Positions 12,001-15,000 of a stretch of DNA of 64,000 nt are shown in pieces. How positions within the stretch are numbered: the first letter of the stretch is position 1; every line of letters begins with the position of its first letter. The position numbers were made by a program. This stretch comes from Escherichia coli O127:H6 str. E2348/69 (GTDB lineage Bacteria > Pseudomonadota > Gammaproteobacteria > Enterobacterales > Enterobacteriaceae), in assembly GCF_000026545.1 (NCBI RefSeq), contig NC_011601.1; one strand, written 5' to 3'.

Positions 12001-15000
12001 TTGAGATATCCGACGGCACAGGCAATGGCGATAGTCGCCAGATTGACCGTATCGGTTTTGAGTGTGCCATCGACCAGATATCCTTCCAGCACATCCAGAC
12101 TGCGGTTGATTTTCTCACGCTGACGTAACAATTCATCTTCAGACTGCTGCGCCGCCGGACGCGCCTGTTCACGCACCGATACCAGCCCGGCATCCATAAT
12201 GCCATCCGCCAGCGCCTCAATTTTGCGCACCCGCAACGACTCCAGCGGATCACGCGGCAACATCGCCGGAGCAACATTCATTAATTCAATATATTCAGCG
12301 ATGATCGGCGAATCAAACCAGCATTCGCCCTCTTCGGTCACCAGCACCGGCACTTTTCCTAACGGGTTAAATTGCGCCACGCCGTTATCCGCGTTATAGG
12401 GCAGTTCATTAATAAATTCGAACGTTATGCCCTTTTCTAACAACAGAATGGAAAGTTTGCGTACAAACGGGCTGGTGTAGCTACCGACGAGTTTCATGCC
12501 GAGTCCTTTGTGCGAGGAAAAATATCAGTATGGCTCAGGCTCGCGCAAAACACAGGTGATACAAGTCTCAATGATCCAAATAAAGATAATGCATCCAACT
12601 GGTCATTCTTAGCAGCACTTTCCGCATCACCGAAACATGGCTGAAATGGTCGGAGTAAACTGCCACCTGGGCGTAGATGCCGTCGGGTAAGGCATCGATA
12701 TCAGCGTTAGGGTCCAGTTCAATGGTTCCCAGCACACCGTCCGTGCCGGGCACGACCGTTAATGATTGCAATACCCCCTGCGCCTGATAAGAACCGCCTG
12801 GCACGACAGGTAAAATGCTGGTCAGTTTGCCGTGGAACACCTGCCCAGGTAGCGCGTTAAACACCACTTCCGCATCATCGCCGGGTTTCAGACGTAACAG
12901 CGAGTTTTGCCGAAATTGGGCGACAACTTGCCGTTTTTGCTCGGGGATGAAGACCATCACCGGACGCAGCGGCAAGGCAGCTGCGTATGTACCTGGGCGG
13001 ATCAGTACCTGAGTGACGTAGCCATTGCTCGGTGCGCGAATGACGGTCTGCTCAAGGTTATATTTTGCTTCTGTAAGTTGCGCTCTTAAGCTCACAATCT
13101 GCGATTGCTCGCCGTTAACCATACTGTCGAGCTGGCTCTGGATCTGCGCCTGCTCCGCCACCGAGCCTTTCACCAGCGCATCCTGCGCGAGGAAATTTTG
13201 CCGCGCATCGTCGATGTCACGTTCCGAGAACGGATTCACCGCCGCCTGGCTGCCTTTCAGATAACGTTGATAATTTTTAAACAGACGGTCGCGCTCCGCT
13301 GAAACCTGGGTGGTGTTGGCCTGCGCTTCAGTGAGCTGCGCGCGCAGCGTCTTTATATTATGCGTCGCCGTCATCAGGTCAGCCTGAAGCCTGTCAACTC
13401 GCGCCAGGTAACGAACCGGGTCGAGCTTAAAAAGCACCTCGCCCTTCTGAATAAGCTGATTATTTTTGTCGGTGACTTCAGTAACAATTCCCGTCACCTG
13501 TGGCGTGATGGGGATCGCTATCACTGCCTTTTGCGCGGTAAAAGTGTAAGGGTGGTTGTAGTTCATCAACAAAATCAAACCACTCACCAGAAACACGCCT
13601 CCCAGCGCCGCCGTCGCCAGCGTCCACTGATTCACCGGAATGCGGAAGATTTTAAAGACCGCCCACGCCAGCGCCACGTAAGTTAAAACAATCAATAGAT
13701 CCATTATTAGATCTCCGGGAACGTGGAATAGTCAGTCTTTTTCTCGGCGGCGAGTTGGTGCTCCAGCCGGGAAATCCGGTCAGAAAGTGCGGCGATTTCC
13801 GGGTCTGGCACGTCGCCTTGCGGCGCAACATGCGACTGCATGCCCCAGCCGCGCTCCGGTTGATAGAGCGTCGCCCAGATCCACAAAAACGGCCAGATAA
13901 CATGCAGAGTAAACAGGCTCACCCAGCCCGCCGTATGAATAGCGTCGGCATGGGGATGGTTGCGCTTTTTGGCAATCAGATAAGGGATGTCATGTATCGC
14001 GATGATTCCATAAAAAATCACCAGAAAGACGAAGATCAGCACTCCCAACGCGAAATAGTTTAGAAACATATCTGCCTCGGATTCACGTTTATCAGTGTTG
14101 TTTTTTGGCTGGCAGCCAGAAGGGAGTCAGGCTGATATTTTGACAATAATCCGGGTTCGCGATTCTCACCATAACACCAAAGAATAATTTTAAGAGGTGA
14201 TGAGTTGCTTAGTTACATAACGATTTCATGACGAAGGCATAACATGCTGTAGATCACATCAGGTGAACGCCGTAAGAAAATATCTTGTGATTCAGATCAC
14301 AAAGATTCAACAAACCATCAAAATAAAAATGTGACATAAGTCACATTTAAATGCCATTTTTAGCGAAAATCGCCGCCTTGTTGCTTTTTTACACAAGCAT
14401 TTTGTGATGAGTATCACGTCAATTACCTCTCTACCCCCTACATTTATGTGACTGATGTCACACAAAAGGCCGCCGACTGGACAGTTAACCGATTCAGTGC
14501 CAGATTTCGCAGTATCTACAAGGTCCGGCTACCTCTGCCGCCACATTAACAAAAAACCTCGGGCTTCCAGCCTGCGCGACAGCAAACATAAGAAGGGGTG
14601 TTTTTATGTCATCCGATATTAAGATCAAAGTGCAAAGCTTTGGTCGTTTCCTCAGCAACATGGTGATGCCAAATATCGGCGCGTTTATCGCGTGGGGTAT
14701 CATCACCGCGTTATTTATTCCAACAGGGTGGTTACCGAACGAAACGCTGGCGAAGCTGGTCGGGCCGATGATCACTTATCTCCTGCCGCTGCTGATCGGT
14801 TATACCGGTGGTAAGCTGGTAGGCGGCGAACGTGGCGGCGTAGTCGGTGCCATCACCACCATGGGCGTTATCGTCGGCGCAGATATGCCGATGTTCCTCG
14901 GCTCTATGATTGCAGGTCCGCTGGGCGGCTGGTGCATTAAGCACTTCGACCGCTGGGTAGACGGTAAGATCAAATCCGGTTTTGAAATGCTGGTGAATAA

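Follow-up and report, generated by a model that had tools for sequence, protein, structure and literature searches.

The genes yibF and yibH of Escherichia coli O127:H6 str. E2348/69 are separated by exactly 70 bp (12498-12567 in the ORF listing, from the yibF start codon to the yibH stop codon), and this junction is very probably the ancestral, never-occupied allele of the RhsA locus. The feature itself is ordinary and not new, as the rhsA locus has long been known to occur in such an Rhs-free form. Positions refer to the window, i.e., the whole 64-kb stretch of DNA that was analysed. The first 25,870 bases of the window matched E2348/69 (NZ_CP059840.2) with 0 mismatches and the junction match was 100%; RefSeq annotation of this identical sequence calls the two flanking genes yibF and yibH. 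Both are co-directional with selB, selA and yibI on the minus strand, and mtlA is next, on the plus strand (Table 1). No gene lies in the spacer, which agrees with an earlier note on this DNA giving the two genes as 70 bp apart.

Table 1. Features of the yibF-yibH site and its neighbourhood in the E2348/69 window
Feature	Position	Strand	Remarks
selB	8559-10403	-	ORF listing
selA	10400-11791	-	ORF listing
yibF, glutathione S-transferase-like, 202 aa	11889-12497	-	left flank of the site; ORF listing and E2348/69 annotation
yibF leader, 37 bp	12498-12534	-	common to all states of the site; contains Shine-Dalgarno-like AAGGA
32 bp, TCAGGCTCGCGCAAAACACAGGTGATACAAGT	12535-12566	none	empty allele only; in K-12 the 8,249-bp RhsA element is found here
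Single shared base	12567	none	separates the right breakpoint from the yibH stop codon (12568-12570)
yibH, HlyD-family membrane protein, 378 aa	12568-13704	-	right flank of the site; ORF listing and annotation
yibI (DUF3302)	13707-14069	-	upstream partner of yibH; ORF listing and annotation

In K-12 MG1655 (NC_000913.3), yibF and yibH are 8,287 bp apart, and rhsA, yibA, yibJ, yibG, yibS, yibW, yibV and yibU are located between them. The gene order given for K-12 in the earlier note (rhsA, yibA, yibJ and yibG between yibF and yibH) is correct according to the MG1655 annotation, and with eight genes intervening K-12 does not share the adjacency of yibF and yibH. Local alignment with the yibF and yibH flanks of K-12, which the note had proposed, breaks at 12534/12535 and 12566/12567 of the window, equivalent to 3993/3994 and 12242/12243 of the MG1655 locus (L001). 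Homology with K-12 extends from yibF to 12534 (L001 3993) and is resumed at 12567 (L001 12243). Between these points K-12 has 8,249 bp and the window has 32 bp (TCAGGCTCGCGCAAAACACAGGTGATACAAGT), with no target duplication and no terminal repeats. Apart from chance 9-mers, nothing in the K-12 locus matches the 32 bp. The earlier statement that the site is empty in this strain is therefore borne out, no Rhs material being present, and is refined to a substitution rather than a clean insertion. On the yibF side, the AAGGA motif occupies 6-10 nt ahead of the yibF ATG, and the 37-bp leader is identical in K-12, O157 and MOD1-EC7003 and nearly identical in E. albertii. The YibF protein is 100% identical to that of K-12, and YibH is 99.2% identical to K-12 YibH.

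The same pair of lengths is reported from older work. Feulner et al. are said to have described in 1990 an rhsA element of 8,249 bp in K-12 and a Rhs-free strain carrying an unrelated 32-bp sequence instead. The site is the same, and both figures, 8,249 and 32, are reproduced exactly here, the comparison being one of lengths. The strain differs, being E2348/69 here and an ECOR isolate in the earlier study, and otherwise nothing substantive separates the two. A literature text search for the 8,249-bp or 32-bp figures together with rhsA gave nothing relevant, and a search on the Rhs content of E2348/69 gave nothing usable. The observation matters little beyond bookkeeping: a textbook presence/absence polymorphism is confirmed at base resolution, and the background of the B2-type strain E2348/69 is marked as Rhs-poor.

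The absence of an Rhs core, which the earlier note stated for the gap between the two genes, holds for the entire 64-kb window, the stretch to which the note's proposed search for Rhs cores was applied: tblastn with K-12 RhsA and blastn with the whole 8,249-bp element gave nothing above chance (best E 1.4 and 0.44, respectively). Rhs elements are recognized by a large GC-rich core ORF bearing YD repeats, after which come an AT-rich tip and a gene for immunity; the window has none of these. The characters of a Rhs-free allele at the rhsA locus are present, namely adjacent yibF and yibH, an unrelated 32 bp and no Rhs core at the locus. In relation to the E. coli Rhs polymorphic toxins (RhsA-F, clade I), the site in the window is thus a null allele and not a member of the family. 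It might be supposed that this lineage once lost an Rhs element by excision or deletion and that the 32 bp is the remaining scar, since Rhs elements are classic substrates of recA-dependent rearrangement (Jackson et al. 2009, PMC2935791) and an IS1-mediated deletion of the whole region exists in E. coli QL57EC. However, the 32 bp lacks a counterpart in the K-12 element or its flanks and is conserved in species outside E. coli, and no IS, repeat or Rhs fragment was found in the window. Such a scar is effectively refuted by the first two of these observations, and its probability is close to nil.

The element of the occupied alleles begins one base past the stop codon of yibH and stops 37 bp short of the yibF start. 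The K-12 element measures 8,249 bp and that of O157:H7 (TB21-1) 6,495 bp, the breakpoints and the end sequences of the element being the same in both. In K-12 and O157, the element contains the GC-rich rhsA core, the AT-rich toxin tip, immunity genes and orphan tips. The GC content of the K-12 element is 61.7% in the core, 40.5% in the tip and 38.1% in the remainder vs. 52.7% in both flanking genes; its composition is foreign. Direct and inverted repeats at the ends of the K-12 element were no better than in shuffled controls, no integrase is annotated in the Rhs element of K-12 and O157 or in a 12.2-kb island occupying the same site in E. coli TUM13936, and no tRNA-family match reached the Rfam gathering score anywhere in the window. 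An attachment site of an integrase-driven island was rejected on these three grounds. The only Rfam match of the window at the gathering threshold is a JUMPstart RNA element at 54546-54584 on the minus strand (RF01707, 55.2 bits), presumably the leader of the LPS core (waa) operon. In Escherichia sp. MOD1-EC7003 (L009 10347-13271), a K-12-type Rhs left end adjoins yibF; the next 3 kb contain a lipoprotein-like ORF and an ISAs1/H-repeat-like ORF in place of an rhs core, and the contig ends before yibH.

The states of the site were counted in 5,426 complete E. coli genomes. The contiguous empty junction was found in 1,521 of them (28.0%), and the empty site is therefore not an assembly artefact. 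K-12-type Rhs junctions were present in 3,748 genomes on the left and 3,723 on the right, i.e., in about 3,740 (69%), and a different island abuts yibH in 74 (1.4%). The remaining genomes show other states. One of these is QL57EC (L003 14243-14940), where the 5' end of yibF has been cut off by an IS1 that now links the gene to yibL; the yibF-to-yibL deletion takes out the Rhs site together with yibH, yibI and the mtl operon. By megablast, an rhsA-type core was found in 3,903 genomes and was missing from 1,523, a number close to the 1,521 genomes with the empty site, the comparison being one of totals. Empty sites also occur outside B2, for example in O145:H28. This census (28% empty, 69% Rhs, 1.4% another island) updates the ECOR-era picture.

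The position between yibF and yibH is Rhs locus 10 in Table 3 of Jackson et al. 2009 (PMC2935791), with the same flanking genes as the site described here. Locus 10 was reported for many strains and was absent from a pathogenic group without the clade I Rhs expansion; positions 10 and 11 were inferred to have originated once that group had split off (Jackson et al. 2009, BMC Genomics 10:584, PMC2935791). Unlike the present comparison, that study gives presence and absence only, with no base-level junction, and other cargoes of the site are not described in it.

The polarity of the change can be judged from outgroups and from the flanks. A degenerate yibF pattern was used in a single scan of species-representative genomes, which returned six loci and did not include E. 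fergusonii, E. marmotae, E. ruysiae or Salmonella. In E. whittamii, Escherichia sp. E1V33, E. coli E69 and SCPM-O-B-8794, yibF and yibH are exactly 70 bp apart, the mean column identity across the aligned junction being 97% in this set. The 32 bp is conserved in these four as well as in O145:H28 and A13. As the YibH proteins of E. whittamii and E1V33 are only about 93% identical to that of E. coli, these two are real outgroups. The usual outgroup, E. albertii, carries a MOSC-domain gene in place of the 70-bp spacer and therefore cannot directly confirm the ancestral state. In the flanks, the occupied haplotypes, K-12 and O157, are separated by only 6 differences in 2,135 positions and 5 in 1,503, whereas 18-36 and 10-39 differences separate the empty haplotypes (E2348/69, O145:H28 and A13) from one another. 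Near-identical occupied flanks and diverse empty ones point to a young, shared occupied haplotype and to old empty alleles, within a small sample of two occupied and three empty haplotypes. Judged from these alignments, flank diversity and outgroups together support one acquisition of the element, its subsequent spread and its primary absence in the E2348/69 lineage.

Recombination at the locus clearly happens: O145:H28 is empty and O157:H7 is occupied, although these related lineages have the same YibH protein (WP_000364939.1). The near-identical flanks of K-12 and O157 likewise show haplotypes moving between lineages. Both observations would suit a secondary loss, in which an ancestor bearing RhsA had the empty spacer restored by homologous recombination with Rhs-free DNA. 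This is very improbable for E2348/69, as its flanks differ from the occupied haplotypes by about 1.6-2.7% and resemble those of the empty allele A13. Moreover, the roughly 1,520 genomes without the element at the site and the roughly 1,520 without an rhsA-type core fit whole lineages that never had the family, in line with the inference of Jackson et al. 2009. Some of the empty sites outside B2 could nevertheless be secondary replacements and not retention of the old state.

With primary absence preferred, the following sequence of events may be proposed. The B2-type strain E2348/69 would retain an arrangement in which yibI, yibH and yibF stand head to tail, the latter two separated by the 70-bp spacer. 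About 69% of the sequenced E. coli would have had 32 bp of this spacer replaced by the foreign Rhs element, acquired once through illegitimate or very short-homology recombination with no target duplication. The element would then have spread between lineages through homologous recombination of the flanks, and lineages such as B2 would never have received it.

The short yibH-yibF spacer repeatedly accepts foreign DNA. E. coli TUM13936 (NZ_CP134358.1, L004 1801-14000) has its 12.2-kb island at the equivalent of window positions 12561-12570; the island carries genes for an S6-family (SPATE) autotransporter peptidase and for two HTH regulators, together with a fimbrial operon of the pef-like chaperone-usher type. 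The strain retains a diverged copy of the yibH-yibF spacer, and the yibH-side junction of its island is the one counted in 74 of the 5,426 genomes. In E. albertii, the order is yibI-yibH-[215-aa MOSC/YiiM-like gene]-yibF-selA-selB (CP099910.1, L012 9141-10000; also L005 and L013-L015). An IS1 copy is located between yibH and the MOSC gene in E. albertii TW07627 (L013).

The E. albertii arrangement allows for an older loss, whereby the ancestor would have had yibH-MOSC-yibF and the MOSC-domain gene would have been deleted in the E. coli lineage. The gene sits exactly in the yibH-yibF slot, and the 30 nt ahead of the shared yibF leader resemble the sequence following the MOSC stop codon (p about 0.01). 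However, the gene was found in none of the 5,426 complete E. coli genomes, and E. whittamii and E1V33 likewise lack it. The nearest homologues, with about 70% identity, are those of Klebsiella aerogenes and Pluralibacter gergoviae; they sit in unrelated neighbourhoods, adjoining TonB-dependent receptor genes of iron uptake or kdp genes. By its absence from E. coli and the unrelated contexts of its homologues, the MOSC gene is very unlikely to have been the ancestral occupant, and a deletion of this kind deserves little credence; on this distribution, the gene is more likely an acquisition of E. albertii than an ancestral gene lost in E. coli.

How unrelated the 32 bp is to the other states was assessed on the 30 nt directly preceding the common yibF leader of 37 nt, using composition-preserving shuffles with p values uncorrected for multiple tests; the similarity seen in several pairings was weak. 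E. albertii and the left end of the K-12 Rhs element share 13 of 18 anchored bases (shuffle p about 0.002), and blastn aligns the two over 54 bp with 85% identity (E 9e-11), the shared leader included. The E. albertii spacer also resembles that of the empty allele (p about 0.01) and that of TUM13936 (p about 0.0005). The similarity between the spacers of the empty allele and K-12 was not significant by the same shuffles (p about 0.25). In the K-12 locus, L001 3994-4011, the first 18 bp or so of the element next to yibF, resembles E. albertii L005 786-821 and not the empty allele. The classical left boundary of the RhsA element may thus include a few bases of a donor-type spacer.

These resemblances suggest that all the states keep diverged versions of one spacer and that every cargo was inserted no more than about twelve bases from the stop codon of yibH. 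Since only the part of the spacer that is not needed by yibH or yibF tolerates insertions, selection can explain such clustering without a site-specific mechanism. A tentative and rather doubtful extension is that approximately 12556-12567 forms a shared slot taken independently by at least three unrelated cargoes (the Rhs element, the 12.2-kb island and the MOSC gene), that the 32 bp is mostly a fast-diverged common spacer, and that the Rhs allele carries its E. albertii-like version. If this were true, RhsA would have reached E. coli already embedded in the yibF-proximal sequence of a diverged Escherichia donor.

With regard to function, consensus scanning revealed no sigma-70-like promoter and no intrinsic-terminator-like site within the 70-bp spacer; two terminator-like matches in the scanned region fall inside the coding sequences of yibF and yibH. 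The RNA fold of the spacer was no better than that of shuffles (z +0.71), and no Rfam family was matched in it. A hidden RNA element in the 70 bp was rejected on the fold, the Rfam result and the lack of promoter- or terminator-like sites. To judge from the missing consensus signals, transcription from yibIH may continue into yibF when the site is empty, and insertion of the Rhs element would then uncouple yibF from yibIH. If such read-through occurs, acquisition of the element would have altered the control of yibF in most E. coli, albeit as a small regulatory consequence.

Several other strain differences were observed in and around the window. At 4102-4147, sgbE/araD (3406-4101) is followed directly by aldB (4148-5686, minus strand). 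The yiaT-yiaU-yiaV-yiaW block preceding aldB in O157 and QL57EC is absent from the window, and E. albertii shares this short arrangement; yiaVW are roughly 76% paralogues of yibHI. Between aldB and yiaY, E2348/69 has a gene for a Fic-family protein (5794-7089, minus strand), as do O157, O145:H28, A13 and E. albertii; QL57EC lacks it, and the gene is thus another presence/absence polymorphism. The mtlA-mtlD spacer (16520-16736) is 217 bp long here, 229 bp in K-12 and O145:H28, 94 bp in O157 and 520 bp in A13; by eye, from overlapping ORF translation, it looks like REP-type repeats. At 19908-24680, the E2348/69 annotation shows pseudogenes or fragments for the SadB/YajI lipoprotein and for the YadA-like trimeric autotransporter encoded downstream of it; both genes are intact in TUM13936 and E. 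albertii.
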